From sequence record MK903282.1: DNA of 64,000 nt; one strand, given 5' to 3'. The notes under the pieces were generated by a model, which had not been told where the DNA came from, did no database searches, and saw only the letters and a program-made list of their open reading frames with translations. This DNA is from Escherichia phage Mansfield. This document shows, in pieces, positions 1 through 16,456 of the stretch; positions within the stretch are counted from its first letter, which is position 1; each line of letters begins with the position of its first letter. The translations under genes and the position numbers were made by a program.

Positions 1-70
1 ATTTTAAAATCATTTAAATTAATTTTTTTTCATATCCTCATACTTATACTAAACTTATATTTATACGTAC

Positions 71-132
71 TATCCGTAAGATATAAGTAAAAACAAAGAC
101 TTGCGGCAATACGGATGATACGTCATGATACG
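71..132. repeat. additional copies of the CGTATCATC iteron
   Basis: TATCCGTA at 71-78; inverted TACGGATGATACGTCATGATACG at 110-132. Confidence 0.6.
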
Positions 133-297
133 CTTCGACCAGCCAACAGCGGCTAAGTCATTGATTTGCATAACAAGCGGCGAAAGGGATGGATTTCTTT
201 TATACGTATCAAACAGTACACCACGCACCACGGTACGCTATTCATTCAGCACTATGATTTGTGTACGTTTACAGCCAATTTGAACATCAATCTGCAC

Positions 298-326
298 TTG
301 AATATAATGTTCATTCATTGTATAAT
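298..326 (+). promoter_or_regulatory. sigma70-like promoter TTGAAT-N17-TATAAT
   Basis: TTGAAT at 298-303, 17-nt spacer, TATAAT at 321-326; sits inside the long ORF 166..834, so the true start is downstream. Confidence 0.45.
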
Positions 327-360
327 TCACACTATTAATTTGCACTATGGGATTTGCACT

Positions 361-834
361 ATGAGTCAAGATTATGTAGCAATGCCTGAAGACTTTGAAG
401 ACCCGCGATTTGCAGAGCATAATCAGGCATTATTCGATGAGTTCATTGACCTTGTTATTCAGGGCCATGACATGCGCGCAGCTTTTGCACTAGTATTTGG
501 CATGGAGGTTGCGACCGATAACTACACTGGCCAGCGAATCCTCTGCACGCAACGCAATCCGTACTACAAGATGCGCTACAAAAAGCGTATGGAAGAGATG
601 CCATTGAAGGAATTGTGGAGCGTAAAGAGTTCCATCCACAATTTAGTGAAGCTTGTGCGTGATCCAGAAGTCGCGGCGTCAGCCAAGCTTAATGCCATTC
701 GTGAACTGAATATCATCTACGGCATCACGATGATTGATGAGAATGGCAATAGTAAAATGGGCCGTTCCATGGACGATTTCTACAAGGATTTTGGAGAGGC
801 AGCCAAAGAGGGTGAGCAATTCTCCCGCCACTAG
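361..834 (+). CDS. hypothetical early protein (157 aa)
   Basis: ORF 166..834 trimmed to ATG 361 because the predicted promoter lies inside the longer frame; ATG is embedded in 11-mer copy 2; no catalytic motif recognised. Confidence 0.5.
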   Translation: MSQDYVAMPEDFEDPRFAEHNQALFDEFIDLVIQGHDMRAAFALVFGMEVATDNYTGQRILCTQRNPYYKMRYKKRMEEMPLKELWSVKSSIHNLVKLVRDPEVAASAKLNAIRELNIIYGITMIDENGNSKMGRSMDDFYKDFGEAAKEGEQFSRH

Positions 835-853
835 CCAATTTGCACTATAAAAC

Positions 854-887
854 GGCCCTAGAACACATTTTCTCCACTTCTAGGGCC
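854..887 (+). other. stem-loop (8-bp perfect stem GGCCCTAG/CTAGGGCC, 18-nt loop)
   Basis: Inverted repeat immediately after the 361..834 stop and 11-mer copy 3; no U-tract, so not a canonical terminator. Confidence 0.35.
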
Positions 888-948
888 ATCGGTAATACGA
901 CGGGGAAGGTTACAACCGTAAACGCGTTAGAAGGTGTATTATTATAAG

Positions 949-1212
949 TCATCTTTTAGTCACTTTACGTAACAATTTACGACCTTCCGCCGTCCAGTCG
1001 AACGACTCCACCAGCAGATTTGCACTATAACCTAAGACGATGCGCCCTTTCTCGTTATCGACCCGCCAACAAGTCTCGAATAGCATTCGATTTGCACTGT
1101 TAACTATCGCCGCAACGCGCGCTGGGTAAGCGCAATTTGCACTATGGTCGTAAAGGGATAAGGTGCGACCACTTCCGATGGATAACGTAGCGATGAGAAT
1201 AAGCGTATTCAT
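949..1212 (-). CDS. hypothetical protein (87 aa), doubtful
   Basis: ORF with GGTGG 3 nt upstream; carries three antisense 11-mer copies; CpG-rich. Confidence 0.3.
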   Translation of the reverse strand: MNTLILIATLSIGSGRTLSLYDHSANCAYPARVAAIVNSANRMLFETCWRVDNEKGRIVLGYSANLLVESFDWTAEGRKLLRKVTKR

Positions 1213-1263
1213 AAGCCACCAATTTGCACTATGAAAAGCGACCCCCGAAGGGCCGCCATTCGA

Positions 1264-1890
1264 TTAGATAATCTGGAATGTGTAGGACTTGTTGCCGAAC
1301 TCGAAGTTCAAGCGCCCAGCTTCCTTAAGCTTCATACGGAAGCGAATGTGCTTGCTATCCGGTAATCCCAGCGCGGCGAACGCTACGCGGACCGATTTAA
1401 ACTCGCCTACACCTTCGACCATAACGCCGTTACGGGTGAGACGCTTTTGCGCTACTTCCTTGTTATCCCAACTTTTTGCAATACCTTCGCTATTCGAACG
1501 GCGATGAGAAGGAGTTCCATTTTGCACTACGCAATTTGCACTATCGTTTAGGCCGCTTTTAACGAAGGCTTCATACTCTTCGTCGGTCATCGCGTCGAGT
1601 TCTTCCTGAGTCGGCTCGGCCTTTTTAACGACCGCACGCGCCTTATGCGTTTTTACATCGCTGGACACTTCCTCGCGCGACTTCGCGTCGGGAATGGGCG
1701 ATTCGTTGGACGGCGCATCGAGCGCGTTTAAGGACTCGATCAACGCGATTACGCGAGTCTCGGCGGTCCGGCGGTCCGCGAATTTCTTAATCGGCTTCGA
1801 ACCGGAATTTGCATTATAAAATGCAACGAGGTCGGCGGTCTTAGTTGCGATAACGTCGCCGCTAGTAGAGAAGCGATTTAAGCTAACCAT
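1264..1890 (-). CDS. hypothetical protein (208 aa)
   Basis: SD context TAGGAGTTTATT-ATG as in the paralog cassettes; no own promoter seen, likely co-transcribed with 1971..2255. Confidence 0.55.
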   Translation of the reverse strand: MVSLNRFSTSGDVIATKTADLVAFYNANSGSKPIKKFADRRTAETRVIALIESLNALDAPSNESPIPDAKSREEVSSDVKTHKARAVVKKAEPTQEELDAMTDEEYEAFVKSGLNDSANCVVQNGTPSHRRSNSEGIAKSWDNKEVAQKRLTRNGVMVEGVGEFKSVRVAFAALGLPDSKHIRFRMKLKEAGRLNFEFGNKSYTFQII

Positions 1891-1970
1891 AATAAACTCC
1901 TATTTGTTAGGGCGCTAGGCGCGAAAGAATTTTATTAAAGCGCCGCGCACGACGCTCTAAAAATCCTCTC

Positions 1971-2255
1971 TTACGCTTCGACGAGGGAGAAGGTCTCAAA
2001 TTCTTCTTCGCCCATAACGAGTAAAATATTACCGATTTCGACCGCTTCGAAGAAGTATCCGTTAACGTTTACTTCGAAGGCTTCGCGGTCCGATTCCGGT
2101 AACGCCGCGTAAAGTTTAAAAGCCTCGGCGACCGTTACCCCACCCGCTTCGATAGTTTGGTCTACGTTCGCGGCGTAGACTTCGGATAAATTTTGTTTTA
2201 CGCCGTAGTTCTCGACGATAGCGTTACGGATAGAAGAAACGTTAAGAATAGCCAT
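1971..2255 (-). CDS. acidic small protein, paralog family member (94 aa)
   Basis: TAGGAG SD 6 nt upstream; shares blocks (NVDxTIE, xNGyfyexxEIG) with 2889..3179; net charge about -13. Confidence 0.6.
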   Translation of the reverse strand: MAILNVSSIRNAIVENYGVKQNLSEVYAANVDQTIEAGGVTVAEAFKLYAALPESDREAFEVNVNGYFFEAVEIGNILLVMGEEEFETFSLVEA

Positions 2256-2323
2256 TTTAAACTCCTAGTTGGGAGAGGCGTTAACGACCTATTCGTTAAC
2301 TCATCCCGTCCCGATATGAGTAC

Positions 2324-2351
2324 ATTATAATATAGTGTAGAAAAAAGTAAA
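2324..2351 (-). promoter_or_regulatory. sigma70-like promoter (minus strand) TTTACT-N16-TATAAT
   Basis: Reverse complement of 2346-2351 is TTTACT and of 2324-2329 is TATAAT; downstream 5'UTR aligns with that of the 2889 cassette. Confidence 0.55.
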
Positions 2352-2395
2352 GCACTTTTTCGATAAAAATGCGATAAATTATTTTATCTTTTTTC

Positions 2396-2423
2396 TTTAC
2401 TTCTTCGTACACTCGCGTATACT
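2396..2423 (+). promoter_or_regulatory. sigma70-like promoter TTTACT-N16-TATACT
   Basis: Shares CTTTACTTCTTCGTACACT and TATATCGAGAGG blocks with the promoter at 2793. Confidence 0.55.
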
Positions 2424-2477
2424 TATTTATATCGAGAGGCGATGGGCCTCTTCTCTTCTACCATCGGGAGTTTTATT

Positions 2478-2780
2478 ATGGCTACTTTAATTTCTTCTAT
2501 CCTTACTTACGACGAAGACCGTTTAACCGTTCGCTCTCTTATCGCCGCCGTTAACGCGGAACTAGAATCTAGCGCCATTAAGGTCCGCGCCGTCGCCTTC
2601 ATCGGCCTTTCCTTCGACGATATTAAATACGCCGAACGTAGCGCCATCCGCTTCGCGAAGACCGACGACGAAGCCGTTACCCTTATCGAGACGGTTACGC
2701 CGCGCGGCGAAGCGTTAATTATCGTCGAGTATATCGACGTAGAAGGCGATAAGGCGTATAAATATTTTATCGCAAAATAA
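2478..2780 (+). CDS. acidic small protein, paralog family member (100 aa)
   Basis: ORF 2442..2780 trimmed to ATG 2478 (GGGAG SD 8 nt upstream); weaker similarity to the other two paralogs. Confidence 0.55.
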   Translation: MATLISSILTYDEDRLTVRSLIAAVNAELESSAIKVRAVAFIGLSFDDIKYAERSAIRFAKTDDEAVTLIETVTPRGEALIIVEYIDVEGDKAYKYFIAK

Positions 2781-2792
2781 CGAAAAAAGTGC

Positions 2793-2821
2793 TTTACTTC
2801 TTCGTACACTAAGACTATAAT
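2793..2821 (+). promoter_or_regulatory. sigma70-like promoter TTTACT-N17-TATAAT
   Basis: TTTACT 2793-2798, TATAAT 2816-2821; conserved 5'UTR then TAGGAG SD. Confidence 0.6.
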
Positions 2822-2888
2822 GTTTTATATCGAGAGGGGATGAGGTAGCGAATAGGTCGCTACCCTTCCGACTAACTAGGAGAATATT

Positions 2889-3179
2889 ATGATTACTTTA
2901 TCCGCTATCCGTTCCGCTCGCGTCGAAACTTCCGAAAACTCTAACGTATTTGGCGAAACGTTAGAGAGCGTTTATCTCTCTAACGTAGACGCGACTATCG
3001 AGTCTATTTATGAACCGATCAACTTCCTCGACCTTTACAAGTATCGCGACGAGGACGTAGTATCCTACCGCGTAACGATTAACGGCTTCGTCTATACGAT
3101 TACCGAAATCGGCGGCGAATATATCGCTGTACCGCAACTCGGCGGAGAGGTGACTTATTTTAAAATCGTCTCCTTATAA
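2889..3179 (+). CDS. acidic small protein, paralog family member (96 aa)
   Basis: TAGGAG SD; paralogous to 1971..2255; net acidic. Confidence 0.6.
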   Translation: MITLSAIRSARVETSENSNVFGETLESVYLSNVDATIESIYEPINFLDLYKYRDEDVVSYRVTINGFVYTITEIGGEYIAVPQLGGEVTYFKIVSL

Positions 3180-3199
3180 TACCCTTCCGTTACTAATAG

Positions 3200-3224
3200 G
3201 CCGCGCTTAGTCGCGGCTTTTCTT
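3200..3224 (+). terminator. rho-independent terminator
   Basis: GCCGCG / CGCGGC 6-bp stem, 6-nt loop, followed by TTTTCTT; 20 nt after the 2889..3179 stop. Confidence 0.6.
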
Positions 3225-3344
3225 CGTCCCTATCCCGATGCGCGTCCTACGCGAAAACTCCTTTATCCTTCCCTTCGTCGTCGCATAATCTTCTTCGAGA
3301 TGCGCCTTAGTTCGCATAAGAGGTATTACGTTAAATGGAGAACA

Positions 3345-3418
3345 TCGCGTAAGTCCTTGTTTTATATAGACACCTATATCGGACCGTTAGGGAGGGTCGC
3401 GTAAGTCGTTGTTTTATA
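3345..3418. repeat. 22-bp direct repeat x2 (TCGCGTAAGTC[C/G]TTGTTTTATA)
   Basis: Copies at 3345-3366 and 3397-3418, one mismatch, in non-coding DNA. Confidence 0.7.
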
Positions 3419-3543
3419 AAGGCGCAAAACTTTCCCTTCGTTCCGAACTAAAACGAGAAATATGCCGACCCTTCGACGAAAAATAGTACGCATGCGAAAT
3501 TACCGACATCTAGAATAATCCCCACCGATATTATCCTACACGC

Positions 3544-3597
3544 AATCATTAGCTTTCGAATCATTATGCTTCATATCATTATGCGTCGAATCATTCG
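3544..3597. repeat. four phased copies of ATCATT (period 14-16 nt)
   Basis: ATCATT at 3545, 3561, 3575, 3590, each flanked by similar G/AAATCATTATG context. Confidence 0.5.
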
Positions 3598-3695
3598 CTT
3601 TCAAATTGTAACGCTGGAAACTGTAACGGCGATTGATTATTGCGTTCGTGTGGTTTTTAGGGCATGGGTCTTTTGGTGCGTTTTGGTACTTGATG

Positions 3696-3808
3696 AAATT
3701 TGCAGTACACTAATCAAAATACGACACATTCGGTCCACTAACTTTTCAAAGAAAAAGTCCCAGACAGTACCGTACTATTTTGTGCCCACAGTAAATTTGC
3801 AGTACACT
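3696..3808. repeat. 16-bp direct repeat x2 (AAATTTGCAGTACACT)
   Basis: Copies at 3696-3711 and 3793-3808; shares the ATTTGCA core with the 11-mer array. Confidence 0.7.
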
Positions 3809-3842
3809 CCTGCGCGGCAGGCAAAATAAAGGGCCGCAGCAG

Positions 3843-3884
3843 CGACCCACGACCCACGACCCACGACCCACGACCCACGACCCA
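3843..3884. repeat. tandem heptamer (CGACCCA) x6
   Basis: Six perfect head-to-tail copies; followed by a 12-bp direct repeat CCCACTATTCAC at 3881 and 3909. Confidence 0.85.
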
Positions 3885-3913
3885 CTATTCACGGTTAAAG
3901 CACCATCCACCCA

Positions 3914-4309
3914 CTATTCACTCTTATGGGCATCACCAAAGCCATCCGCAATCTGGCTGATCAGCGATTCAATGGACACAGTTTTACCAATTGATCGAGC
4001 GGTAATAGCAAGCATATTATCAATCAAACCGCGATTGACTGCATATGTTTCAGGTTTTGATTCATCTCCAGGACAACCAAAAAGCTGGTCGCGCAAACTT
4101 TCGAGGGAACGCTCAATATTTTCCAGCTTCTCTTCTAAATCGGATTGGCGACGTAAAACCCATGTTAAGTCGCGGTTGCCGACTTCCAATCCATTATAAT
4201 CGCAAGATGGAACGTCAATTTTGATGCTGCCACCAAAGGCCATTCCGCTGCCTTTAGTATATGCGTGGTGAATAGAATCATTTTTATTTGACATATCATT
4301 ACCTTTCAT
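3914..4309 (-). CDS. hypothetical protein (131 aa)
   Basis: ORF; no motif recognised. Confidence 0.5.
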   Translation of the reverse strand: MKGNDMSNKNDSIHHAYTKGSGMAFGGSIKIDVPSCDYNGLEVGNRDLTWVLRRQSDLEEKLENIERSLESLRDQLFGCPGDESKPETYAVNRGLIDNMLAITARSIGKTVSIESLISQIADGFGDAHKSE

Positions 4310-4367
4310 GAGGGTGATTAACTTAAATTATAATAAAGCCGCATAGCGCGGCATTCAAATCGGTTTG

Positions 4368-4616
4368 TTAATTGTAACGATTGGATTCATCAATCGATAC
4401 CAACTGTGCTGGGTCGCCGGATACGGTCGAGCCAACGATACCCATCTGCTGAAAGAACTCTGAATAAACTTCCTTCCAGTATTTACGCGCTGCTTTCTGA
4501 GCCTGTCCTTTGCGCTTGAAGCTTTTACCTTGAAAGATGAAACGGTCGCTTGCCGCTCGATACTCCACCACACCTTCCAGCCATTGTAAGAATGCTACTG
4601 ATTCATTCTGATTCAT
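4368..4616 (-). CDS. hypothetical protein (82 aa)
   Basis: ORF; overlapping alternative frame 4355..4573 judged less likely. Confidence 0.4.
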   Translation of the reverse strand: MNQNESVAFLQWLEGVVEYRAASDRFIFQGKSFKRKGQAQKAARKYWKEVYSEFFQQMGIVGSTVSGDPAQLVSIDESNRYN

Positions 4617-4623
4617 GTTAACC

Positions 4624-5019
4624 TCAATATTTTAATAAGAAAGCACCCAACCAACTTTCCTCAATCTCGCGCCCAGTAGCCACACGGTCGGTCTTTGCCA
4701 TGGGTCTGGATTCGCCACATGGCAATCCGTCTTGTAGTTGTGTACTATTTCCAATTCTCACCATGACCTTTCCATCAGGGGCGATATAAGCGCGACAACC
4801 CATGATTTCGAGTCGTTGTAGACACTGGCGAATCGTTTTCAGCCTTTCACCGGACCGGATAGAGCGCGGTCGCGACCGCTGACCGTTCTTATTCACTGTA
4901 CGCTTAACGACAGGAATCTCATTGGTGCGTTGCGCTTTCGGTCGGTAGTAGGCTTCTTCTCCAGGAGTTGCGCCTGGCGTCAATTCGCGCTTGAGAGCCT
5001 TTTCAATATCGATGATCAT
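4624..5019 (-). CDS. hypothetical basic protein (131 aa)
   Basis: ORF; Arg/Lys-rich N-terminal half. Confidence 0.5.
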   Translation of the reverse strand: MIIDIEKALKRELTPGATPGEEAYYRPKAQRTNEIPVVKRTVNKNGQRSRPRSIRSGERLKTIRQCLQRLEIMGCRAYIAPDGKVMVRIGNSTQLQDGLPCGESRPMAKTDRVATGREIEESWLGAFLLKY

Positions 5020-5022
5020 GAT

Positions 5023-5121
5023 TTATGCCGCTGCAGCGTAAACAATTGCATAAGCAATTCCAAATAGCGCGGCGATGCATACCGTGCCCCAAAGTGCAAA
5101 GCGTCGTGACTCTTTATCCAT
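5023..5121 (-). CDS. small hydrophobic peptide (32 aa), tentative
   Basis: Not in the ORF track (<60 aa); ATG abuts the stop of 5122..5409 (TAAATG); translation MDKESRRFALWGTVCIAALFGIAYAIVYAAAA. Confidence 0.25.
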   Translation of the reverse strand: MDKESRRFALWGTVCIAALFGIAYAIVYAAAA

Positions 5122-5409
5122 TTATTTATCCCCAACGTCCATGAAATTAAACACTAATTTTGCCATGTCATCTTGTGAAACGACACTGTAGTGTTTAGGC
5201 AAATTGCTTTCTGACAATACCTTCTGGGCTTCTTCTGCCGTCTCAAACAAAGGAATGCACCAATTAACTGCGTCGCCAGAATCATTGCTATCAACTTGTT
5301 TCAAGAAAACCAAGCGGTTGTCTTCAGGATCAATTCCGCAAATCACGTATTTAGGCAATGCTTTTGCTTTTTGGGCCTTATCGATGTCTTCAAATTTCAT
5401 TTCATTCAC
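5122..5409 (-). CDS. hypothetical protein (95 aa)
   Basis: ORF. Confidence 0.5.
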   Translation of the reverse strand: MNEMKFEDIDKAQKAKALPKYVICGIDPEDNRLVFLKQVDSNDSGDAVNWCIPLFETAEEAQKVLSESNLPKHYSVVSQDDMAKLVFNFMDVGDK

Positions 5410-5483
5410 CTCACTTGTTAACGTATAATGAGTATAACTTAATAGAGCATAAAGTAAAGGCGCTTTTCAGCGCCTTGAGTGAA

Positions 5484-7775
5484 TTATTTTGCTGCCTTTA
5501 GCGCGGCTATCTCTGCCTTCAAATCTTCAATTTGCTTATTGAGATACTGCACACAACCCATCAAGTCCATGACGATTGGGTTGTTGTCCACTGAAGGTCG
5601 GTCGCGCGTCTTCTCGCCTATCTTATTGCCTTCCTCATCAAAAATATCCTCATAAGGCATTTCATGATGCTTGATGTATTGTGGTGCGATCACCTCCGCT
5701 TCTTCGGCAATAATCCCGAATCTTACGCGCTCTTGCTCGTCATCCTTGTAGACAAAGTTCACTAGACGCTGTGAATTGATTCTGTCCATCGCTTCCTTTG
5801 CATCTGCATCAACGATGTCCCTTTTATATTCAAGACCGGACGTGCCTTGAAGCGCGATTGTTCCAGATGTTGAAGTCGGGAAGTCGAGAGTGATTTCACC
5901 AGTACGGTTGCCATCCTTGCGACGGAAGAATAAACGATAGTAGCGCGTACCGTTGGTGCCCAGCGCGGCTTCAAAAAACATCATACCGCCTACAACCGTG
6001 TCAGGGACTGTTCCGCCGCCGATGTAGTTTGGCTTCATCGAAAGTTGCGGGTACTGCCCATCAATGATTGAAACGCTGCCAGCAAATACTGCGTTTCCTT
6101 TGGAAGTTATCATCCCAGGGGCAGTAAAATCACCTCTTTCGTTAAAGTCATATACCGCTGTCAATCCGCTTGTTCGGTTATACACGTTTAAACGTGCATA
6201 ATACGTCGCGCCAATCGCTGCGCGGATACGCCAACTCATTTGCGCTTCTTGAACGCCATTAACGTTGTAGCGTGAAATGATTTCGCCGCCGTCAGCAGTG
6301 GTGCCTGGGCCTGGCATAGCGGAGTCACCAGTGATCACACTCCAAGATGTATTCGCTGCAACAAACCCGCCAGATGCACGAATAACCCAGACGCCTACAA
6401 AGCAGTCAGGGCGCACCTTTGACGAGCGTCCGTAAGCGGCATTCGACCTGCTTGCGCTATAGTTGAATGTTCCGTATCTGGTTTCAGAAGAAGGCGTTGC
6501 AATATTTATTGCTTGGTTGTTTTGTGAAGAAAAAGAGAATGCACCATATCCATTGCCTGTTTGATATGTATACGCGGTGAAAGAGCCTGTTATGTCTGGG
6601 GCACCGTTTTCAAACACATCACCTGCAGCAGATGATATTCCGCCGTCACCACGTCCGAACAATTCCTTAATTGAACCCGTCTGCACGCCGTTAAAATCAG
6701 GTACGCGAAATGTCGTCGTACCGTTACCGGAAGAATAACGACCGCGTTTTTTCGAGTCTGCAAGCCAGTCAGCATCAGCAATAGGGGAAAGCATTTGTGC
6801 ATACGCCCAAAGCTCAGGCCAGTCTGCACGGTTAAGTAATTGACCGTCCGCTACGACCTCGTACGGTTGGATATATGCACGACTATTTCGTAAGTGGAAG
6901 TCCCCAACGCCATAGTTCATAACACCGTTCATGTTTGGCCCAACGGTGCCTGTATTTACTAAGTTTTCCACCCAACGCTTTGTCGCGGCATCATAATCGT
7001 TGACTGGGTCACCAGCAAGCGGCGTTGAACCTTGTGGGCGAATGTTTAACCATGCTTGAGCATTCTCTCCAGAGCCTGTGCCGCCCATGGAAGTCGGAAC
7101 AACGCTCTGATCGGCCACAGGTCCGAATCCGAATGCATCTTTCATCCCCTGAATTGTGGTTTGGCCTGTTCCACCGTTCGATATTGGGATGATGCTCTGC
7201 TCACTGTAGATTGCTTTCCAAGGACTCCAACCAACAACTGGGTCATGAACTCGAATAAATTGAGAACCATTATTGTTGTATATGGTGTATATTTGTACGC
7301 ATCCATCAGCGCCATTTGCATAATTCTGCTTAACTTCCAGAACACCAGCAATTTGGGCTGGATAGTTTAGAGCAGGTGATGCATTGCTTGATCTGTCTTG
7401 ATAATAATAACCAAACCAGGTGCCAGTCAGAGCATTGAGATTTATTCCAGATGGAATAGGCCCGAAATTTCTAACAGTATTGGTCAAAGATGCGGCAGTA
7501 GTACGAATTGAAAGTAAATCACCAGCCGCCCATGCACGTGCTGCCGTACCTTCTTGTGCACGTTGAACGGTCAGGACGTTTCCAACCACGGCTGTTACTG
7601 TGACGATTTCGAATTGGAGGCCTGTTGCAGCGTCGACGATTGTCGCCACTACACGCTCGTTTGCGCCCAAAGTCGGAAAACCCGACCCTGAGCGAATTGT
7701 TATTGTGGTGTCTGAAGTCGTCGTTGGTTGAGCCAGCGCGACCTCAAAGTTGTTTTTGAATATTAGCCTTGGCAT
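5484..7775 (-). CDS. tail fiber/tailspike with C-terminal intramolecular chaperone (peptidase S74-like) domain
   Basis: 763 aa, Gly/Ser/Thr/Asn-rich body; C-terminal ~110 aa (...SGLEYKRDIVD...RFGIIAEEAEVIAPQY...IEDLKAEIAALKAAK) matches the autoproteolytic chaperone domain of phage fibers. Confidence 0.75.
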   Translation of the reverse strand: MPRLIFKNNFEVALAQPTTTSDTTITIRSGSGFPTLGANERVVATIVDAATGLQFEIVTVTAVVGNVLTVQRAQEGTAARAWAAGDLLSIRTTAASLTNTVRNFGPIPSGINLNALTGTWFGYYYQDRSSNASPALNYPAQIAGVLEVKQNYANGADGCVQIYTIYNNNGSQFIRVHDPVVGWSPWKAIYSEQSIIPISNGGTGQTTIQGMKDAFGFGPVADQSVVPTSMGGTGSGENAQAWLNIRPQGSTPLAGDPVNDYDAATKRWVENLVNTGTVGPNMNGVMNYGVGDFHLRNSRAYIQPYEVVADGQLLNRADWPELWAYAQMLSPIADADWLADSKKRGRYSSGNGTTTFRVPDFNGVQTGSIKELFGRGDGGISSAAGDVFENGAPDITGSFTAYTYQTGNGYGAFSFSSQNNQAINIATPSSETRYGTFNYSASRSNAAYGRSSKVRPDCFVGVWVIRASGGFVAANTSWSVITGDSAMPGPGTTADGGEIISRYNVNGVQEAQMSWRIRAAIGATYYARLNVYNRTSGLTAVYDFNERGDFTAPGMITSKGNAVFAGSVSIIDGQYPQLSMKPNYIGGGTVPDTVVGGMMFFEAALGTNGTRYYRLFFRRKDGNRTGEITLDFPTSTSGTIALQGTSGLEYKRDIVDADAKEAMDRINSQRLVNFVYKDDEQERVRFGIIAEEAEVIAPQYIKHHEMPYEDIFDEEGNKIGEKTRDRPSVDNNPIVMDLMGCVQYLNKQIEDLKAEIAALKAAK

Positions 7776-7813
7776 TTTACGGTCCTCGTTTTGTCGACAA
7801 CCGTATTATAACC

Positions 7814-8155
7814 TTAATTTCTTTTGAGAGGAATATGACGGTTGCTGTCATTATTTGGTTTAATAATGAGCATAAAAACGATTAGAAAGATGATGGCTGA
7901 TATACTTAATTCAATCAGCGCGGCTTGAGATATGGATTGATCTTCATGATACTGCTTTTGCATTTCCGCTCTCTTTTGAGCGCAAACTTCAGGCGATATA
8001 TAATCTCCTTTTGAGTTGCCATAATAAATCTCGCCATTCTCAGAAATAAGCCTGCCGCAAATATCCGTATCGGCCTTTGCGCTTGACATCATAATAACGG
8101 TGCCGATGATAGCAGCAATTGTCCAAATTAGCAGTTGTGATAAAGTGTTGTTCAT
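7814..8155 (-). CDS. membrane protein (113 aa)
   Basis: N-terminal and C-terminal hydrophobic segments; AAGAGG SD. Confidence 0.5.
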   Translation of the reverse strand: MNNTLSQLLIWTIAAIIGTVIMMSSAKADTDICGRLISENGEIYYGNSKGDYISPEVCAQKRAEMQKQYHEDQSISQAALIELSISAIIFLIVFMLIIKPNNDSNRHIPLKRN

Positions 8156-8173
8156 AATAACCTCTTTAAATTA

Positions 8174-8194
8174 CCCTTCCCATGTCGGGAAGGG
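8174..8194. other. perfect 8-bp hairpin (CCCTTCCC / GGGAAGGG)
   Basis: Lies between minus-strand genes just upstream of the 7814..8155 SD; possible attenuator. Confidence 0.35.
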
Positions 8195-8352
8195 TGAATA
8201 TTATTTTACGCGAAAGAATAAGCGCGTGCCACACAGCGAGTCCCAACGGCCCTCACCATCCCATATCGACCCAACACCAGCGGTGATTGGGCCAGCAGAA
8301 TTGGCGGCATTGGCCCAGGCGAGTCGTTTCAGTTTCCAACTGCACCAACGAT

Positions 8353-8616
8353 TCACAGTTCACCTCCAGACTGCAAAACAAGTCCCGCATAGAGGATTGC
8401 TAGAGCTAAAGGCGCACCACTTCCAGCCTCTCTATTCTCTTTGATTTGAAGAGTATCCTTAAGAAATTGCAACTGAACGTTGAATTCATTTTCAATTCCA
8501 AGCACTACAGATAATTCTTTTACAGAATCTGCATATGCCTTGTCTAGAACTTCTTTTGGTAATGTTAAAGTCAATTCACTTGCCATTCTCTTTCCACTCC
8601 ACAAATGTGCTGCCAC
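8353..8616 (-). CDS. hypothetical protein (87 aa; start may be internal)
   Basis: ORF. Confidence 0.4.
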   Translation of the reverse strand: MAAHLWSGKRMASELTLTLPKEVLDKAYADSVKELSVVLGIENEFNVQLQFLKDTLQIKENREAGSGAPLALAILYAGLVLQSGGEL

Positions 8617-8797
8617 TTGTTTCTCTATTTAGCAGGTATCTGCCGCGCATTCCATGAAGGCTGAATTCAACCGTCGATGGATTAGATTTTGAAAGCCACA
8701 TGGCCTGACCGTCGAACGGTCCGCCAACGCATGTGTATTTAGCCTTTGGCTCACTCCTTTTGGGTCGCTTTGCCCGCTCTTTGATTGATAGTCTCAT
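8576..8797 (-). CDS. hypothetical protein (73 aa)
   Basis: ORF; basic N-terminus. Confidence 0.4.
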   Translation of the reverse strand: MRLSIKERAKRPKRSEPKAKYTCVGGPFDGQAMWLSKSNPSTVEFSLHGMRGRYLLNRETSGSTFVEWKENGK

Positions 8798-9012
8798 CAG
8801 TCTTCACCTTGAGATTCCAGACAAGTAAGAACAAGCCACGTCATCGGAAGAATCAAAACCAGAGAAATAAGGGACCAGATGGACCAGCACAAGATGACAG
8901 ACTTGAATGTGTGAACGTCGCCAAACACAGCAGTGAAACAAAATCCCATCACAAAAGCAAGCGTGGTGGAGTGGTTATCAATGGCTTTGATGGCGCGGTC
9001 GATGAGTTTCAT
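8797..9012 (-). CDS. small membrane protein (71 aa)
   Basis: Two predicted hydrophobic helices. Confidence 0.45.
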   Translation of the reverse strand: MKLIDRAIKAIDNHSTTLAFVMGFCFTAVFGDVHTFKSVILCWSIWSLISLVLILPMTWLVLTCLESQGED

Positions 9013-9101
9013 ATTACCTCCGGTTTTGAGTTAATATGATTATAACGCAGAGTTTCAGAAAGGCAAACTTTTTGTGAATTTATGCCGTCCATGGCAAATG
9101 A

Positions 9102-9483: not shown

Positions 9484-10911
9484 ATGTACCAGTTGAATCC
9501 TGCTTTAAGAGAAGTTTGGAAGACGAAAGCGCGATACAAAGTAATATACGGCGGTCGTGCATCTTCCAAATCGCATGATGCCGCTGGTTTTGCTATTTAT
9601 TTGGCGGCAAACTTTAAATTAAAATTCCTTTGCGTTCGACAATTCCAGAACAAGATTTCTGAATCAGTATATACGCTATTAAAAGATAAGATAGAGATTT
9701 CTGATTTTAAAGACGAGTTCAACTTATTAAAGAACTCTATTGAACACAAAAGAACAAAATCTGAATTCTTATTTTACGGTATCGCACGCAACGTTGACGA
9801 AATCAAATCAACAGAAGGCGTTGATGTTCTTTGGCTTGAAGAAGCGCATGCACTGACTGAAGAACAATGGGACATTATTGAGCCGACCATTCGTAAGGAA
9901 GGGTCAGAAATATGGATCATATTTAACCCTGATGAAGAGGCCGATTTCGTCTACCAGAACTTTGTCATGCGACCGCCGAAGAATGCCATCGTTAAGAAGA
10001 TCAACTGGCAAGACAACCCATTTTTGTCACAAACAATGCTGGATGTTATTGCTGGCATGTATGAGCGCGACCCGAAAAAGGCAGAACACGTTTATGGCGG
10101 AGTACCGAAGACAGGCGGCGACAAGTCGGTCATCAACCGTGCATTCGTCAAGGCCGCGCTAAACCTCCACAAACACCCTACGCTGGGATGGAGCTTGTCA
10201 GGGTCTAACCGTATAGGCTTTGACGTGGCGGACGACGGCGACGACTTAAACGCCACAGCATTTGTCACGGGCAACGTATTGCGCGGCATCAAGACATGGG
10301 AAGGTCTGGAAGATGAATTGCTTAAGTCCGCAAGCGGAGTTTGGAAAGACGCATTGACATTCGGCGCATCAATTACCTATGACGCAATCGGTGTTGGTGC
10401 ATTTGCTGGTTCAAAATTTGATGAGCTTAATGAGTATGCAATCCATGAAAATCCAACATTCCCAAGAATCGAATTTAATGCGTTCAACGCGCAAGGTGCT
10501 GTTGATGATCCTGATGATGTTTTCCTTGAGTTACCACACGTTGAAATACTCAATAAAGACCATTTCGCAAACATAAAAGCGCAAAAATGGACTGAGATTG
10601 CCGAACGATTCAGGAAGACATATGAATATGCGACAGGGCAAGCCGTATATCCGACCGATGAGTTGATTTCCATCGACACAGACGGCATTCCAGAACTTGG
10701 GATTCCTGCTTGGTCTGCGGAAGAGATTGAGACGTTTCTTTTTGAGATGTCAGCGCCGCGCAAAGATACGTCTGTACTTGGCAAGTTCAAAGTTGAATCG
10801 AAAAAAGATATGGCAAAGCGTGGAGTCAAATCGCCTAACAAAGCGGACGCCGCAATCATGGCATTGATGAAACCAATTGTTGCAGCATCCGGCTTCTTCT
10901 CTAACCTTTAA
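9484..10911 (+). CDS. terL: terminase large subunit
   Basis: N-terminal ATPase with Walker A-like GGRASSKS and Walker B-like VLWLEE; C-terminal nuclease-like half; start moved from 9451 to 9484. Confidence 0.9.
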   Translation: MYQLNPALREVWKTKARYKVIYGGRASSKSHDAAGFAIYLAANFKLKFLCVRQFQNKISESVYTLLKDKIEISDFKDEFNLLKNSIEHKRTKSEFLFYGIARNVDEIKSTEGVDVLWLEEAHALTEEQWDIIEPTIRKEGSEIWIIFNPDEEADFVYQNFVMRPPKNAIVKKINWQDNPFLSQTMLDVIAGMYERDPKKAEHVYGGVPKTGGDKSVINRAFVKAALNLHKHPTLGWSLSGSNRIGFDVADDGDDLNATAFVTGNVLRGIKTWEGLEDELLKSASGVWKDALTFGASITYDAIGVGAFAGSKFDELNEYAIHENPTFPRIEFNAFNAQGAVDDPDDVFLELPHVEILNKDHFANIKAQKWTEIAERFRKTYEYATGQAVYPTDELISIDTDGIPELGIPAWSAEEIETFLFEMSAPRKDTSVLGKFKVESKKDMAKRGVKSPNKADAAIMALMKPIVAASGFFSNL

Positions 10912-10914
10912 CAA

Positions 10915-11154
10915 CTAAAGCATTCCGTGCTGAAGGTCGAGTTTTCTTGCGGCAAATGACCTGGCACGGAATCGCTTACCCGCTCTTACTGCCTGTCGAA
11001 TTTTCTTTTGCAAACACTTACGGTCAAAATCGTTGCGGTCGACGGCTTCGAGTAAATCACGACGCAACGCACCCAGTGTCGACTTTTCGGAGACTTCAAC
11101 GCCCAGCGCGGCTGCAACGTCTTTCAAAACATCGAGTTCGGTTAAAGTTCTCAT
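10915..11154 (-). CDS. hypothetical protein (79 aa)
   Basis: ORF; N-terminal segment LKDVAAALGVEVSEK resembles a Rho-N/SAP-like helix pair. Confidence 0.45.
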   Translation of the reverse strand: MRTLTELDVLKDVAAALGVEVSEKSTLGALRRDLLEAVDRNDFDRKCLQKKIRQAVRAGKRFRARSFAARKLDLQHGML

Positions 11155-11567
11155 TTGATAATCCCCTTGATGTCTGATTCTGCCATAAAGATTGGAGTGC
11201 CGCCGCCAGGAACAATCGAGCGCGTTACTTTGTCAAAAATATCGTTCTCTTCAACTTGAATACGATAAAATTTATTTTTGGATGAAGATGGGCACAATCC
11301 CATAAATTTGCCGATGCCGCGAACGCATTCATCTTCAAAGTATACTGTTTCACCTTGAATGGATTCGATGTTGTCTACTGGATAGACCTTGCGACCCAAC
11401 AACCACTCATCTAAAGTCGCCTGCAAGACGTTTCGCGCATCTAAAATCCACGGGTCAATAGTAGCACCTTCGTATCGCGCAGCAGTAGCCTTTGCCAGTT
11501 CTTCATATTCGCATACGTTAACGACTTCGCCGTTGTGCAAGACGACAAATACAATTGTTGTGCTCAT
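11151..11567 (-). CDS. hypothetical protein (138 aa)
   Basis: ORF overlapping the previous stop by 4 nt (coupled). Confidence 0.5.
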   Translation of the reverse strand: MSTTIVFVVLHNGEVVNVCEYEELAKATAARYEGATIDPWILDARNVLQATLDEWLLGRKVYPVDNIESIQGETVYFEDECVRGIGKFMGLCPSSSKNKFYRIQVEENDIFDKVTRSIVPGGGTPIFMAESDIKGIIK

Positions 11568-11662
11568 TTCAATCTCCTTTCGTTTGGTTAACTAAAATAT
11601 AACTCAAAATGATACAAAAGCAAAATATTTTATGAACTATTTATGATCACCATACATATCAT

Positions 11663-11691
11663 TTGCTTACAAACACATGAATATTTATAAT
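11663..11691 (+). promoter_or_regulatory. sigma70-like promoter TTGCTT-N17-TATAAT
   Basis: Upstream of the portal start at 11730. Confidence 0.45.
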
Positions 11692-11729
11692 ATAGATTGA
11701 TTCCCTTTCACTGTCAGGTGGCGTTAACA

Positions 11730-14105
11730 ATGAAAATTCTTGGCATAAAACTCTGGGAGAAGACGCAACCAGAAGCCGAACCAGCGGAGATGCCGCCAGG
11801 CGACCCATTGGCACCGTTTGAACGCCTTGAAAGGCGCGGCAGCGGTCAACGCTGGGAAAAGACTGAAAGCAATCGACCGACCTTTAAAACGGTTGATGAC
11901 TTCCCTTTATATGAACCTGATATTAATGGCGACGGTGTTGCTATCATAAAAGGTCGTTCAGTCGATTCCGCAACAGTATCCAAAAAGGTTATGGATAATG
12001 CCTTGAAGAACATCAGTTCAGAAGGGCAGGTCAACCCATACACAGTCCCTATTCAACTTCAAAACTGGTATTTGTCACAGTCATTCATCGGCTATCAAGC
12101 TTGTGCCATCATCGCACAGCACTGGCTGGTGAACAAGGCGTGTTCCATGGTAGGCCGCGATGCGGTCCGTAAAGGCTGGGAAGTCAAATCCAGTTCTGAG
12201 TCAGAATTATCAGTGCAGGCCAGCGAACGCCTAAAGCAAATTGATAAAGAATTTAATATCAAAGAGCACTTAGTTGAAGCCGAACGATTCAAAAATATTT
12301 TTGGTATCCGCGTCATCATATTTGATGTGCGTAGTGATGACCCAGAATACTACAGCAAACCTTTTAACATTGATGGTGTGACAAAGGGGTCTTATAAGGG
12401 AATCATTCAGGTTGACCCTTATTGGATGATGCCATTTTTGACGTCTGAAAACACCGCCGACCCTGCATCACAGCACTTCTATGATCCAGAATACTGGGTG
12501 ATCAGTGGACAACGTTATCATCGAAGCCACCTGATCATTTTGCGCAACGATGAGCCAGCTGATATTCTCAAGCCGACTTATATTTACGGCGGCATTCCTT
12601 TGACTCAGCAGATTTATGAACGCATCTATGCCGCTGAGCGTACCGCTAACGAAGCGCCATTGCTGGCGATGTCCAAGCGTACAACCACGCTGCGGACCGA
12701 CGTTGACAAGGCGATTGCCAATGAGAGGTCTTTTGCTGAACGTCTGATGATGTGGATTAAGTACCGCGACAACTATGCAGTCAAAGTGCTTGGTCAAAAA
12801 GAAGAGATGGACCAGTTCGACATCAACTTGTCAGACTTCGATAGCATCATCATGAACCAGTACCAGCTGGTGGCTGCAATCGCAAAAGTTCCGTCAACCA
12901 AACTTCTTGGGACTTCGCCAAAAGGCTTTAACGCCACTGGTGAATTTGAGATGGTCAGCTATCACGAAGAGTTGGAAACTTGCCAGCAGCATGACCTGAC
13001 AAAAATTCTCGACCGCCATTACAAAATCCTTCTCAAATCAGAAGGGGTGGAAGTCGATGTTAAGGTCGCATGGGAACCAGTTGGCTCACTTACTGCTACT
13101 CAACTTGCAGAAATCAACGACAAGCGAGCTAACACTGGCAAAACTCTTATTGATGCTGGCGTCATTTCTCCTGATGAAGAGCGCGACCGCATCAAAGACG
13201 ACAAAAACAGCGGCTACAACCGTCTGCCGGAAGACGCAGCAGAAGAAACCCCAGGGATGTCTCCAGAGAATATGGCATTGCTTGGCAAGTCTGCTGGTGA
13301 AGTCCTGCAAGGCAAGGCCGATATTGAACAGGCGAAAGCTGATGTCGTTAAGATGGGCGGCCAGTTCTATAGCGAAACAGGTATTATGCCAGAAGGTGCC
13401 GCGCGTGGTGAGTTGGCGGAAAACCCTGACAAAGCGCCTGTCGAAATCAACATGGACGATACCGATGATGAATCAAGCCATCAGGTTGATGTCCTAACGC
13501 AGTTGAAAGAAGGTCTGGAGGGTATTGCTGATTATTACCTGAAAGAAGGTCAGGATGTGGATTTTGACCCTCAAAAAGATTCACGGTCGGTACAACCGTC
13601 TACCCTTCCAAGCGTCAAAGGTAATGTCGTTAACTTACGACACAACGTTGGAAAGATGGATGCAGCATCGTTACCTAAGATGAAGTTGCACGGGCTGATT
13701 CTTGGGATTGAGAATCCTCGCAACAGCATCCGTAGAGGGAACAGCCTTGACGGTGAATGGGCAGTCAAGATGCCGCATCACTACGGATTCATCAAGGGCA
13801 CTAAGGGCGCGGACGGCGATGAAGTCGACTGCTTTGTTGGTCCAAATATGAAGTCGCCGAAGGTCTTTATCGTTAACCAGAATGATAATTACTCTGGCGA
13901 GTTTGATGAACACAAGTGCATGCTTGGATTCGATTCAGCAGAAGAAGCGAAAGAAGCTTATCAAGCATCATTTGGTAACGGGTGGAACGGATTTGACTCA
14001 ATCCACGAATTGGATGTAAACTCGTTCAAGGAGTGGTTGAAGGGTGATTGCTCTCAAGCATACGGAGCACTCAATAATCCTACTAATTCACCGAAGCAAG
14101 GTTGA
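11730..14105 (+). CDS. portal protein with C-terminal pyrophosphatase-like extension
   Basis: Large protein directly after terminase with acidic C-terminal region; start trimmed to 11730 (GGTGG SD); C-terminal ~150 aa contain HYGFI...DGDEVDC (13779-13832). Confidence 0.7.
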   Translation: MKILGIKLWEKTQPEAEPAEMPPGDPLAPFERLERRGSGQRWEKTESNRPTFKTVDDFPLYEPDINGDGVAIIKGRSVDSATVSKKVMDNALKNISSEGQVNPYTVPIQLQNWYLSQSFIGYQACAIIAQHWLVNKACSMVGRDAVRKGWEVKSSSESELSVQASERLKQIDKEFNIKEHLVEAERFKNIFGIRVIIFDVRSDDPEYYSKPFNIDGVTKGSYKGIIQVDPYWMMPFLTSENTADPASQHFYDPEYWVISGQRYHRSHLIILRNDEPADILKPTYIYGGIPLTQQIYERIYAAERTANEAPLLAMSKRTTTLRTDVDKAIANERSFAERLMMWIKYRDNYAVKVLGQKEEMDQFDINLSDFDSIIMNQYQLVAAIAKVPSTKLLGTSPKGFNATGEFEMVSYHEELETCQQHDLTKILDRHYKILLKSEGVEVDVKVAWEPVGSLTATQLAEINDKRANTGKTLIDAGVISPDEERDRIKDDKNSGYNRLPEDAAEETPGMSPENMALLGKSAGEVLQGKADIEQAKADVVKMGGQFYSETGIMPEGAARGELAENPDKAPVEINMDDTDDESSHQVDVLTQLKEGLEGIADYYLKEGQDVDFDPQKDSRSVQPSTLPSVKGNVVNLRHNVGKMDAASLPKMKLHGLILGIENPRNSIRRGNSLDGEWAVKMPHHYGFIKGTKGADGDEVDCFVGPNMKSPKVFIVNQNDNYSGEFDEHKCMLGFDSAEEAKEAYQASFGNGWNGFDSIHELDVNSFKEWLKGDCSQAYGALNNPTNSPKQG

Positions 14106-14106
14106 T

Positions 14107-14958
14107 ATGGCTTTTAAAGCTTCGAAAAAACGTGAACGCCGCTCACCCGATAGAATCGGGCGCGGCAGTCCGATAATCCCGTCAAACGCTATTGCGATGG
14201 CCTACCGTCGTGAGATGAAAGGTCTTTGCTATGCGATGATTGATGACTATCAAGCAGGCATTTCAGAATGGCTTGATAAGAAGCAGGTGCAGAAGTTTTT
14301 TGCGCAAGACTCTGCTGATTCTACATTCCAGACTCTCATGAAACGGCTGCAGCTGAAATGGGCAAAGGCGTTTGCACGTGTTGGGTCGAAGATTGCCGCT
14401 GATTTTATCAAATCGGTCGAAAAGGGTGCCACTTCTGCTACATTCGCAAGCCTTAAGTCCGCAGGCATAGAAGCGCCAAAGGCCACATATAACAAATTCG
14501 TTGAGAACACTCTTAGAACAAGCGAGACGTTTAACACGACTCTAGTGACTAAGGTCGGCGAGGATATTCACAACAGAGTGTACGAAGCAGTCATGCTTTC
14601 GCTGACTTCGCCCGACCCAGCCCAGCAAGGAACGTCAGGCATTCAGGCGGCGTTGCGAAACGTAAAACACTTCTCTGCAAAGAGGGTCGACTTGATCGCT
14701 AAAGACCAGACAAGCAAATTGTATTGCGTTCTAAGCGATGAAAGGATGCGCCAGAATGGAGTCGAAGAATTTGAGTGGGCGCACTCAGGAGCAGGAAAGG
14801 AGCCGCGAATCTCTCATGAACACGTCGACGGAATGAGATTCAAACTTGACGACAAGCGACTATGGGAAGTTGACGGCGAATTGAAGTTCAAAAAGGGTGA
14901 CATCGGTCCTCCTGGATGGGCAATACACTGCAAGTGCAGAAAAATACCAATCATTTGA
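14107..14958 (+). CDS. putative head morphogenesis (minor head) protein
   Basis: Assigned by position immediately after portal; start trimmed to 14107; ends HCKCRKIPII. Confidence 0.45.
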   Translation: MAFKASKKRERRSPDRIGRGSPIIPSNAIAMAYRREMKGLCYAMIDDYQAGISEWLDKKQVQKFFAQDSADSTFQTLMKRLQLKWAKAFARVGSKIAADFIKSVEKGATSATFASLKSAGIEAPKATYNKFVENTLRTSETFNTTLVTKVGEDIHNRVYEAVMLSLTSPDPAQQGTSGIQAALRNVKHFSAKRVDLIAKDQTSKLYCVLSDERMRQNGVEEFEWAHSGAGKEPRISHEHVDGMRFKLDDKRLWEVDGELKFKKGDIGPPGWAIHCKCRKIPII

Positions 14959-14965
14959 GGTCATT

Positions 14966-15886: not shown

Positions 15887-15896
15887 AGAGGAAGTT

Positions 15897-16034
15897 ATGC
15901 AAAAGATTATTCAGTCACGTTATGTTAAAGTGCGAAATATTAATTGCAACTCTCTGCTTTCTTGGAAATGGGCCGTTTACGATTCGATGCTGATTGGCGT
16001 TTTAGTTGCTGGAGTGCTTTTTAATATTCACTGA
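15897..16034 (+). CDS. small hydrophobic protein (45 aa), tentative
   Basis: Not in the ORF track; AGAGGAAG SD 4 nt upstream; predicted single TM helix. Confidence 0.3.
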   Translation: MQKIIQSRYVKVRNINCNSLLSWKWAVYDSMLIGVLVAGVLFNIH

Positions 16035-16077
16035 ATCGCCTGGCAATGGATTGCCGCAGGATTTTACGCGTATAATG

Positions 16078-16341
16078 ACGTATCATCCGTATCAAGTAAG
16101 TATTTGTTTTCAAAAGAATCTTACGTATGATACGGATGATACGCGTTGCCGCGATACTTTATAGGAATTCAAATAAATTAATTTAAAATTATATATCTAA
16201 TTTAATTTTATTTTTTTATAAACTCTTATATATGAAAAGTATCCGTATCATCCGTATCATCCGTAGCACACCAGTGATAGCGCGGCTTATACACCGATAC
16301 GGATAAAAATACGCCTCATTTTATCCGTATCATCCGTATCA
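16078..16341. repeat. iteron cluster (9-mer unit CGTATCATC) in AT-rich region
   Basis: Forward copies 16078-16094, 16241-16265 (three tandem units), 16322-16341; inverted copies 16128-16143 and 16295-16304; flanked by a >90% A+T tract at 16175-16240. Confidence 0.75.
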
Positions 16342-16427: not shown

Positions 16428-16456
16428 ACACAATACTTATTTGAGGGTGGATGCGA

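Follow-up and report, generated by a model that had tools for sequence, protein, structure and literature searches.

A terminal-repeat island of Escherichia phage Mansfield depleted in the CA:TG base-pair step and its possible role at genome entry

Why is the DNA at the left end of the genome of Escherichia phage Mansfield so much richer in CpG than the remainder? A first-pass annotation of the stretch analysed here (64,000 nucleotides of sequence record MK903282.1, in the following called the window) had described positions 840–3225 as a CpG-rich island with five open reading frames (ORFs), an 11-mer array, three copies of one promoter and a terminator, and had offered two readings, namely different constraint or a separate evolutionary origin as horizontally acquired cargo. 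The window belongs to Wifcevirus (E. coli myoviruses, family Lindbergviridae) and has as its first base the left physical terminus of the genome. The CpG excess itself was confirmed, as the 260 CpG in 840–3225 correspond to 10.9 per 100 nucleotides and an observed/expected ratio of 1.98, against 5.8 per 100 nucleotides and 1.09 in the remaining window, and this ratio is higher than in every window of the same length elsewhere (mean 1.09, standard deviation 0.08, maximum 1.33). G+C is 0.471 in 840–3225 and 0.461 elsewhere, i.e. in the sliding-window analysis the island differs from the genome average in its CpG ratio and not in G+C. All the elements named are present (Table 1), the array consisting of 9 copies of ATTTGCACTAT. 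The estimate of 38 CpG in the 285 nucleotides of 1971..2255 came close to the true count of 36, whereas the supposed three-fold excess is real but only about two-fold compared with an average 285-nucleotide stretch (approximately 17 CpG). The limits had to be redrawn, with the right edge at about 3550 and a left edge that is graded from about 900 and gives way to the core at about 1700.

Loss of a single base-pair step

The primary anomaly of the island is the loss of the CA:TG step. The symmetrised rho of CA/TG is 0.40 in the island and 1.19 elsewhere, accompanied by compensating rises of CG (1.98 vs 1.09) and TA (1.21 vs 0.65), and the other seven of the ten base-pair steps are unchanged. 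The loss is 5–7-fold across approximately 1700–3550 and weaker from approximately 900 onwards. Per 500 bp the core holds 10–19 CA+TG, whereas the genome has 72 ± 12 and nowhere outside the island falls below 50; the densities are 33 and 147 per kb, respectively. The trinucleotide CAG/CTG is found once in the 1851 bp of the core, counting both strands, where about 60 would be expected (genome 32.6 per kb). The distance delta* of the dinucleotide signature reaches 215 for the island and at most 106 for other windows.

When the three core proteins encoded by orf94, orf100 and orf96 were recoded with the codon weights of the genome and CA/TG was forbidden, 34, 41 and 35 CpG (each ± 3) were predicted, and the three ORFs contain 36, 44 and 36. 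As CA/TG-free recoding reproduces the CpG counts, the CpG richness is an arithmetic by-product of the CA/TG loss and was not itself selected for. A longer motif behind the depletion was sought in the tetranucleotide contexts pooled from six islands. All tetranucleotides containing CA/TG are depleted (ratios 0.03 to 0.79), most strongly TCAR, CAGT and TTGA and least ACAY and the start-codon contexts, and no single motif explains the pattern.

Selection on duplex DNA and its conservation among relatives

Several features show that selection against this step is strong, continuing and directed at the DNA itself. The core ORFs contain 5–8 CA+TG, whereas 33–36 ± 4 would be expected for the same proteins with the codon usage of the genome and the theoretical minimum for the three proteins is 1–4. 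Among the codons ending in a pyrimidine, NNC is used in 94% of the cases before G and NNT in 89% before A (Fisher 1e-22), while the reference genes of the phage show the opposite preference in the same contexts (42% and 63%). The amino acid composition has been affected as well, since the core proteins are free of His, Cys and Trp and contain three Gln and one internal Met, these five residues together making up 4 of 287 positions compared with 10.1% in the reference genes (P=3e-9). The non-coding part of the core is 3.3-fold depleted (43.5 vs 147 CA+TG per kb, Poisson 6e-19), and the −35 boxes of all three island promoters read TTTACT, without the TG and the CA of the TTGACA consensus. The island of Serratia phage SMP is read in a single direction, and yet its sense strand is about five-fold depleted in CA as well as in TG, and thus the target is the duplex DNA step and not an RNA motif. 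Taken together, the evidence from codons, non-coding DNA, −35 boxes and phage SMP excludes explanations based on tRNA, codon optimisation or a single-stranded RNA motif; those at the tRNA level were rejected as the effect is seen at codon junctions and in non-coding DNA. This near-complete local ban on one step overrides codon preference, costs five amino acids and weakens the −35 boxes.

Sequence variation among Wifcevirus genomes gives the same picture. In their cores 42% of the possible transitions would create a CA/TG and 7% would destroy one, which amounts to a ratio of about 6:1. Among the transitions seen as minor alleles, 59 create and 39 destroy a CA/TG, or 75 and 62 if transversions are included, and alleles creating the step are more often singletons (P=0.006). 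As creation and destruction are near balance despite the roughly 6:1 opportunity, the composition is at a selected equilibrium and is not that of decaying foreign DNA.

The distribution of the island was analyzed by scanning 79 loci retrieved via an alignment of orf208, the largest ORF of the island, whose homologues occur in 355 phage records, approximately 300 of them from Pseudomonas phages. Among the 79 loci, islands with a CA/TG rho of 0.46 or less, CG around 2 and TA around 1.2 are restricted to Wifcevirus, the MyoSmar-like Serratia phages and a Kyle-like contig of 73 kb; about 65 other relatives scanned, Pbunavirus included, have no such island. Pantoea phage PA1 and Serratia phage SMP carry one as well. 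All 15 Wifcevirus loci show the CA/TG trough, and the complete genome of Bas99 contains no other. The Kyle-like contig has an exact 3603-bp repeat, the inner half of which is again filled by the island, and the Serratia phages have two orf208 paralogues, CA/TG-poor inside the island and of normal composition outside. The purge of one base-pair step is hence conserved and actively maintained across three phage genera. Salmonella phage PCSE1, which is also enterobacterial but more distantly related, was scanned over its whole genome and has no island, and an enterobacterial host alone is therefore insufficient to explain its presence. At approximately 330–580 of the PCSE1 locus (L107) there is an intergenic patch of about 250 bp with 11 CA+TG, 18 CG and 33 TA, which may be a vestige of an island or a miniature one.

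With these data the two readings of the first-pass annotation can be separated: different constraint holds, whereas acquisition as accessory cargo with the composition of a foreign donor is very improbable. The latter could account for the large signature distance, for small genes that are gained, lost and replaced between isolates, and for orf96, which has no relatives outside Wifcevirus. A foreign donor should not, though, leave G+C equal to that of the genome with a single abnormal step out of ten, and we know of no donor genome with a CA/TG rho of 0.40. The island sits in the same place, syntenic beside the small terminase gene terS, in every Wifcevirus examined and recurs in the Serratia and the Pantoea/Kyle-like relatives; orf208 is a vertically inherited, family-wide gene, and the substitutions indicate maintenance without amelioration. 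Neither an integrase nor a tRNA or att-like flank was found in the ORF list or in the Pfam and PHROGs scans of the island. The comparison of presence and absence that had been proposed as a check revealed no patchiness within Wifcevirus, where single cassettes alone vary. An unrelated ORF of 104 amino acids replaces orf94 in WFH, WFC, Bas98 and Bas101, orf94 is deleted in ECML-117 and Eco4M-7, and AV128 has additional ORFs inserted, as have SP13, ECML-117 and FEC19. The replacing and inserted sequences are unrelated ones, and yet they too are poor in CA/TG and obey the codon-context rule of the core. It is the choice of individual small genes that is accessory and turns over, and not the island itself.

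A proposed role of the island during genome entry

The position of the island offers a clue to its role. The first 6 kb of the window are 90–96% identical to about 30 Escherichia and Shigella Wifcevirus phages, and the sequences deposited for WFH, WFC and SP13, which include the physical ends, open with the same bases as the window. In WFH (MK373776) bases 1–3701 are 100% identical to the final 3701 bases, in agreement with the terminal repeat of approximately 3.7 kb described for WFH and WFC (PMC6563267). Position 3701 of WFH corresponds to about 3673 in the window, and the island is thus predicted to form the inner half of the left copy of a direct terminal repeat of approximately 3.67 kb. 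The core at 1700–3550 lies within this long direct terminal repeat, as is characteristic of the first-step-transfer region of T5-type phages. By consensus match the core holds three sigma-70-type promoters and a terminator, and together with the small acidic proteins these presumably represent an immediate-early module that is read first by the host RNA polymerase.

We propose that the island is the first-entering and first-expressed module of the phage and has been cleared of CA/TG so that a cleaving activity cannot cut it, a reading for which we see the chances as evenly balanced. Packaging would start at the left end, as terS and an array of putative recognition sites in one orientation are located there; lambda, P22 and SPP1 serve as analogy. 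The right copy of the repeat would then be the last to be packaged and the first to leave the capsid, and roughly the first 2 kb to reach the cell would be those of the island. It would have to function as naked DNA before any protection by phage proteins exists, a role equivalent to that of the first-step-transfer (pre-early) DNA of T5. The fading of the depletion with distance from the presumed first-entering end would then follow the order of entry. The CA/TG-dependent agent might be host restriction-type nucleases, or a frequently cutting nuclease of the phage that destroys the host DNA.

Published restriction phenotypes are consistent with this proposal. In the BASEL collection four Wifcevirus isolates resist EcoKI, EcoCFT_I, EcoRI, EcoRV and EcoCFT_II without a known protective mechanism but are very sensitive to EcoP1_I, even though each of the two type III systems has some 90 sites in the genomes (PMC11990801). 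The published numbers of EcoCFT_II sites, 92 in Bas99 and 81 in T7, are matched by CACAG alone, which we therefore assign to this system. We mapped six recognition sequences on the repeats of Bas98–101 and of the window, which contain no EcoRI, EcoRV or EcoAI-type site, 0–1 EcoKI and CACAG sites, and 5–7 AGACC sites in both orientations. Type III cleavage requires two inverted sites and type I cleavage of linear DNA requires two sites, and hence a single EcoKI or CACAG site is expected to be a poor substrate. EcoP1I, the sole system with a cleavable arrangement of sites in the repeat, is also the sole system that restricts. In T5, EcoRI and clustered regularly interspaced short palindromic repeats (CRISPR) systems are effective only where their targets lie in the first-step-transfer DNA, i.e. 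the terminal repeat with the pre-early genes (bioRxiv 10.1101/866236; PMC13250531). The arrangement of sites in the repeat is thus a possible answer to the puzzle raised by the BASEL data, why EcoP1I alone among the restriction systems tested is effective against Wifcevirus.

Several points weigh against the proposal of a first-entering module cleared against cleavage. Sites for EcoRI, EcoRV, EcoKI and EcoAI are rare and their absence from 3.7 kb is not significant alone, so that the weight of the restriction data rests on one contrast, CACAG versus AGACC. We infer the entry end, the stepwise entry and the early timing in Wifcevirus, and a T5-style entry of the whole repeat with the left end first would clash with the normal composition of the first 1.7 kb. 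No nuclease or anti-restriction domain was detected in the island proteins by Pfam, PHROGs, PADLOC and PDB profile scans. The removal of CA/TG eliminates about half of the possible 5–7-bp sites and a quarter of the 6-bp palindromes, 4-bp palindromes are enriched in the island (154 vs 102 ± 10; 6-bp palindromes 30 vs 23 ± 5), and no amino acid would be lost by a ban on AG/CT or CG, against five by the ban on CA/TG. The palindrome excess, the partial loss of sites and the cost of five residues leave a general avoidance of host sites short of a full explanation. Both the strength and the specificity of the signal are better matched by one agent that is always present and recognises a short sequence with CA/TG in it. 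Avoidance of CRISPR protospacer-adjacent motifs was dropped as a candidate, CTTC/GAAG being visibly common in the island (judged by eye, uncounted).

Such a single agent may even be encoded by the phage. Davison proposed for A1 of T5 the role of a pre-early nuclease that breaks down the host DNA at a time when all the phage DNA inside the cell is free of its sites (bioRxiv 10.1101/866236). Enterobacterial Lindbergviridae (Wifcevirus, Kylevirus and Myosmarvirus) could likewise be T5-like, with the first 2 kb or so immune by sequence to a frequently cutting, CA/TG-dependent nuclease, possibly one made by the phage to destroy the host DNA within minutes, although we regard this more specific version as rather doubtful. 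If true, Davison's model of a site-less first-step DNA, put forward to account for T5 destroying the host DNA and sparing its own, would have in the island its first clear trace at the sequence level, and the island would point to the specificity of the nuclease. A link between the very short latent period reported for Wifcevirus phages and such a nuclease is speculation.

Other ways of explaining a ban on one duplex step have to be considered alongside. One is a window free of DNA modification, in which a base modification in CA/TG context would block restriction and also hinder the host RNA polymerase, so that the early genes are kept free of the motif. It would account for a duplex target, and the genome does encode a homologue of thymidylate synthase, a polynucleotide kinase, a MazG-like pyrophosphatase and a reductase of unknown role, but no DNA-modifying enzyme is annotated in it, a mark in CA/TG context would leave GAATTC and GATATC unprotected, and the restriction data are explained by the distribution of sites alone; we therefore consider it unlikely. 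The same grade applies to the idea that the island is insulated from host DNA-binding proteins and promoter-like signals for an unconditional and uninterrupted early expression. TG/CA occurs in many host sites, such as the −35 box TTGACA, the extended −10 TG and the sites of CRP, LexA and IHF; TTGA, TGAC and CTTG are among the most depleted tetranucleotides (ratios 0.09–0.13 in the six pooled islands), and the core has no further promoter-like site with a TTG −35 box. On the other hand, the island's own −35 boxes avoid TTG, contrary to promoter optimisation, the avoidance of sites requires neither the clearing of codon junctions nor the loss of five amino acids, and the genes behind the similar promoters at 5431–5458 and 38836–38863 are not depleted.

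A role in replication or concatemer formation appears still less probable. The E. coli primase DnaG starts at 5'-CTG, and a terminal region of about 2 kb without primase starts could leave a long 3' single-stranded tail for invasion or annealing, in line with CAG/CTG being the most depleted trinucleotide and with an island that adjoins the right genome end. Every CA/TG context is depleted and not CTG alone, CAG is no more depleted than others in the Serratia islands, and one site-free strand would suffice, yet both are depleted; the restriction data would also be left unexplained. Finally, selection at the level of RNA or translation, through codon pairs, escape from endoribonucleases or avoidance of internal NTG starts, might be suspected as codon junctions show the strongest effect and expression of the genes is probably high. 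We give it hardly any credit, since the sense strand of the unidirectional island has lost CA and UG to an equal extent, the DNA past the terminator and the untranscribed −35 boxes are depleted too, and CTG, the optimal Leu codon, has been abandoned in the core genes.

Whichever agent is involved, the island implies an activity in infected enterobacteria that reads CA:TG duplex steps and is relevant only to the first-expressed 2 kb or so. This suggests a general screen, in which local dropouts of a dinucleotide step mark the pre-early or first-entering DNA of uncharacterised phages. The restriction phenotype of Wifcevirus phages also becomes directly testable by engineering. For phage therapy and engineering, the repeat would be the vulnerable target of restriction and CRISPR systems, and payloads placed there would have to obey the CA/TG rule.

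Features of the repeat and comparison with known systems

The features of the repeat are compiled in Table 1.

Table 1. Features in and around the CA:TG-depleted island at the left end of the window (positions refer to the window).
Feature	Position	Strand	Basis or remark
Direct terminal repeat, left copy (predicted)	1..3673		WFH repeat mapped to the window
ATTTGCACTAT 11-mer array, 9 copies (7 exact, 2 with one mismatch)	338..1817	+	motif search
Small terminase (TerS) gene	361..834	+	phmmer E=9e-33 to PDB 7UXE, residues 3–147; phrog_4783
orf87	949..1212	−	graded zone, about 2-fold depleted; coding sequence in the WFH, WFC and SP13 annotations
orf208, conserved Lindbergviridae protein, phrog_4730 (function unknown)	1264..1890	−	5' part in the core
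CA:TG-depleted island core	1700..3550		CA+TG counts; CpG and TpA excess secondary
orf94, small acidic protein, orf96 paralogue	1971..2255	−	6 CA+TG vs 34 ± 4 expected
Leftward sigma-70-type promoter, TTTACT-16 nt-TATAAT	2324..2351	−	consensus; would serve orf94 and onward
Rightward sigma-70-type promoter, TTTACT-16 nt-TATACT	2396..2423	+	consensus; would serve orf100 and orf96 together with the second
orf100, small acidic protein	2478..2780	+	5 CA+TG vs 36 ± 4 expected
Second rightward sigma-70-type promoter, TTTACT-17 nt-TATAAT	2793..2821	+	consensus
Hairpin in the 5' untranslated region, GGTAGCGA-ATAGG-TCGCTACC	2844–2864	+	read from the sequence, after promoter 2793–2821
orf96, small acidic protein, Wifcevirus only	2889..3179	+	8 CA+TG vs 33 ± 4 expected
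Intrinsic terminator of the rightward unit	3198..3229 (terminator 3198–3219)	+	also annotated in WFH and WFC
Non-coding island tail, about 320 bp, CA/TG-poor, with 25-nt direct repeats at 3345–3369 and 3397–3421	3230..3550		
Four 15-bp tandem units (ATCATTNNNNTTCNA-like, ATCATT...), family D2	3545..3619	+	between island end and inner boundary of the repeat

The terS gene lies inside the repeat and outside the CA/TG-poor core, distant from the gene of the large terminase. Its structural match 7UXE is the TerS decamer of Pbunavirus E217 (PMC9611059). It is the first gene of the genome and is labelled 'hypothetical' in all related records that we viewed. The array of ATTTGCACTAT, with 9 matches compared with 1.65 expected, all in a single orientation and none elsewhere in the 64 kb, overlaps the start of terS and continues through the minus-strand genes. 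ATTTGCACTAT is also repeated beside terS in Pantoea phage PA1 (locus L018, 7648–8310), and a related motif, TTGCACTACA, is found in the Kyle-like contig, so that these repeats are possibly sites for terminase recognition or regulation.

The searches of the island proteins against Pfam, PHROGs and PADLOC returned no function and only matches to phrog_4730 and phrog_4783, both families of unknown function; orf87 has no family match in Pfam and PHROGs. PDB searches with terS and a profile of the orf208 family gave the terS match only, the homologues retrieved with orf208 were near-identical Wifcevirus proteins throughout and gave no useful alignment depth, and Rfam found no match in 1–4400 at E<=1. 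Asp and Glu are visibly abundant in the three small proteins of the core, two of which, orf94 and orf96, are paralogues with 33% identity. For orf96, 16 clusters were found among 5.8 billion proteins, all from Wifcevirus-type sources, which are either contigs of about 68 kb or named Wifcevirus phages, and its AlphaFold model, built from an alignment of 9 sequences, is poor (predicted local distance difference test score, pLDDT, 57). The 19-nucleotide block CTTTACTTCTTCGTACACT at the rightward promoter 2396–2423 has an identical copy at 2792. In Serratia phage SMP an island promoter is likewise followed by a hairpin with an ATAGG loop (locus L019, 11717–11737), the stems of the two hairpins differing in sequence and keeping their pairing. 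Between the divergent promoters, at 2358–2390, TCGATAAAAAT and GCGATAAATTATT resemble the high-affinity H-NS site TCGATAAATT.

Some further observations concern the surroundings of the island. Just beyond the repeat there are two exact copies of AAATTTGCAGTACACT 97 bp apart (3696–3711 and 3793–3808), followed by a run of the 7-mer CGACCCA (3843–3897) that overlaps a minus-strand hairpin resembling a terminator. In phage SMP, too, the island is bordered by a CA-rich tract (L019, 10830–10940). Far away from the repeat, a GpC-rich patch on the minus strand at 53223–54062 (observed/expected up to 1.96) corresponds to an ordinary protein of 279 amino acids, of low complexity and rich in Ala, Lys and Glu.

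In the literature we found no earlier description of a local purge of the CA/TG step in any phage, but parallels to several known systems can be drawn. With the avoidance of restriction sites and palindromes the island shares the removal of short sequences by selection, and for five of the six tested systems the sites in the repeat are absent or single. Classical avoidance is genome-wide and site-specific, whereas the island loses a whole step locally and is enriched in palindromes centred on CG or TA. The depletion of CpG in vertebrates, with its excess of TpG/CpA, involves the same three dinucleotides, one transition apart, but runs in the opposite direction and is driven by methylation-dependent mutation, while the island reflects selection maintained in coding and non-coding DNA. 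The early region of T7, with gene 0.3 (ocr) expressed ahead of the entry of restriction targets, resembles the island in its strong E. coli promoters near the genome end and its small acidic early proteins. One island promoter also points inward from the right end, as A1–A3 of T7 do. The T7 genome has no compositional island anywhere, and no ocr-like sequence was detectable in the island with Pfam and PHROGs.

The closest parallel is the first-step-transfer region of T5. Both are located in a long direct terminal repeat, with divergent units behind strong host-type promoters and small proteins mostly of unknown function. In T5 restriction works only with targets in this region, and for Wifcevirus the published phenotypes fit the site maps, with CACAG versus AGACC as the one informative contrast. 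The injection stop signal of T5 has a position equivalent to that of the 15-bp units at 3545–3619. In Pfam and PHROGs none of the repeat's six proteins matched a family with A1, A2 or dmp, the T5 proteins not having been compared directly. The T5 DNA has a dinucleotide signature of its own when 1–9100 is compared with 10300–30000 (locus L103), with CG at 1.34 vs 0.79, GC at 1.58 vs 1.06, AG/CT at 0.79 vs 1.10 and GA/TC at 0.76 vs 1.00. To our knowledge this signature has not been described before. It is different and milder, without a purge of CA/TG (rho 0.93), and the Wifcevirus island differs further in filling the inner half of the repeat only and in belonging to a myovirus instead of a siphovirus. 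For Wifcevirus, an entry in two steps as in T5 is a proposal. Thus the island most resembles the pre-early DNA of T5 in its probable role, though not in its sequence or signature.

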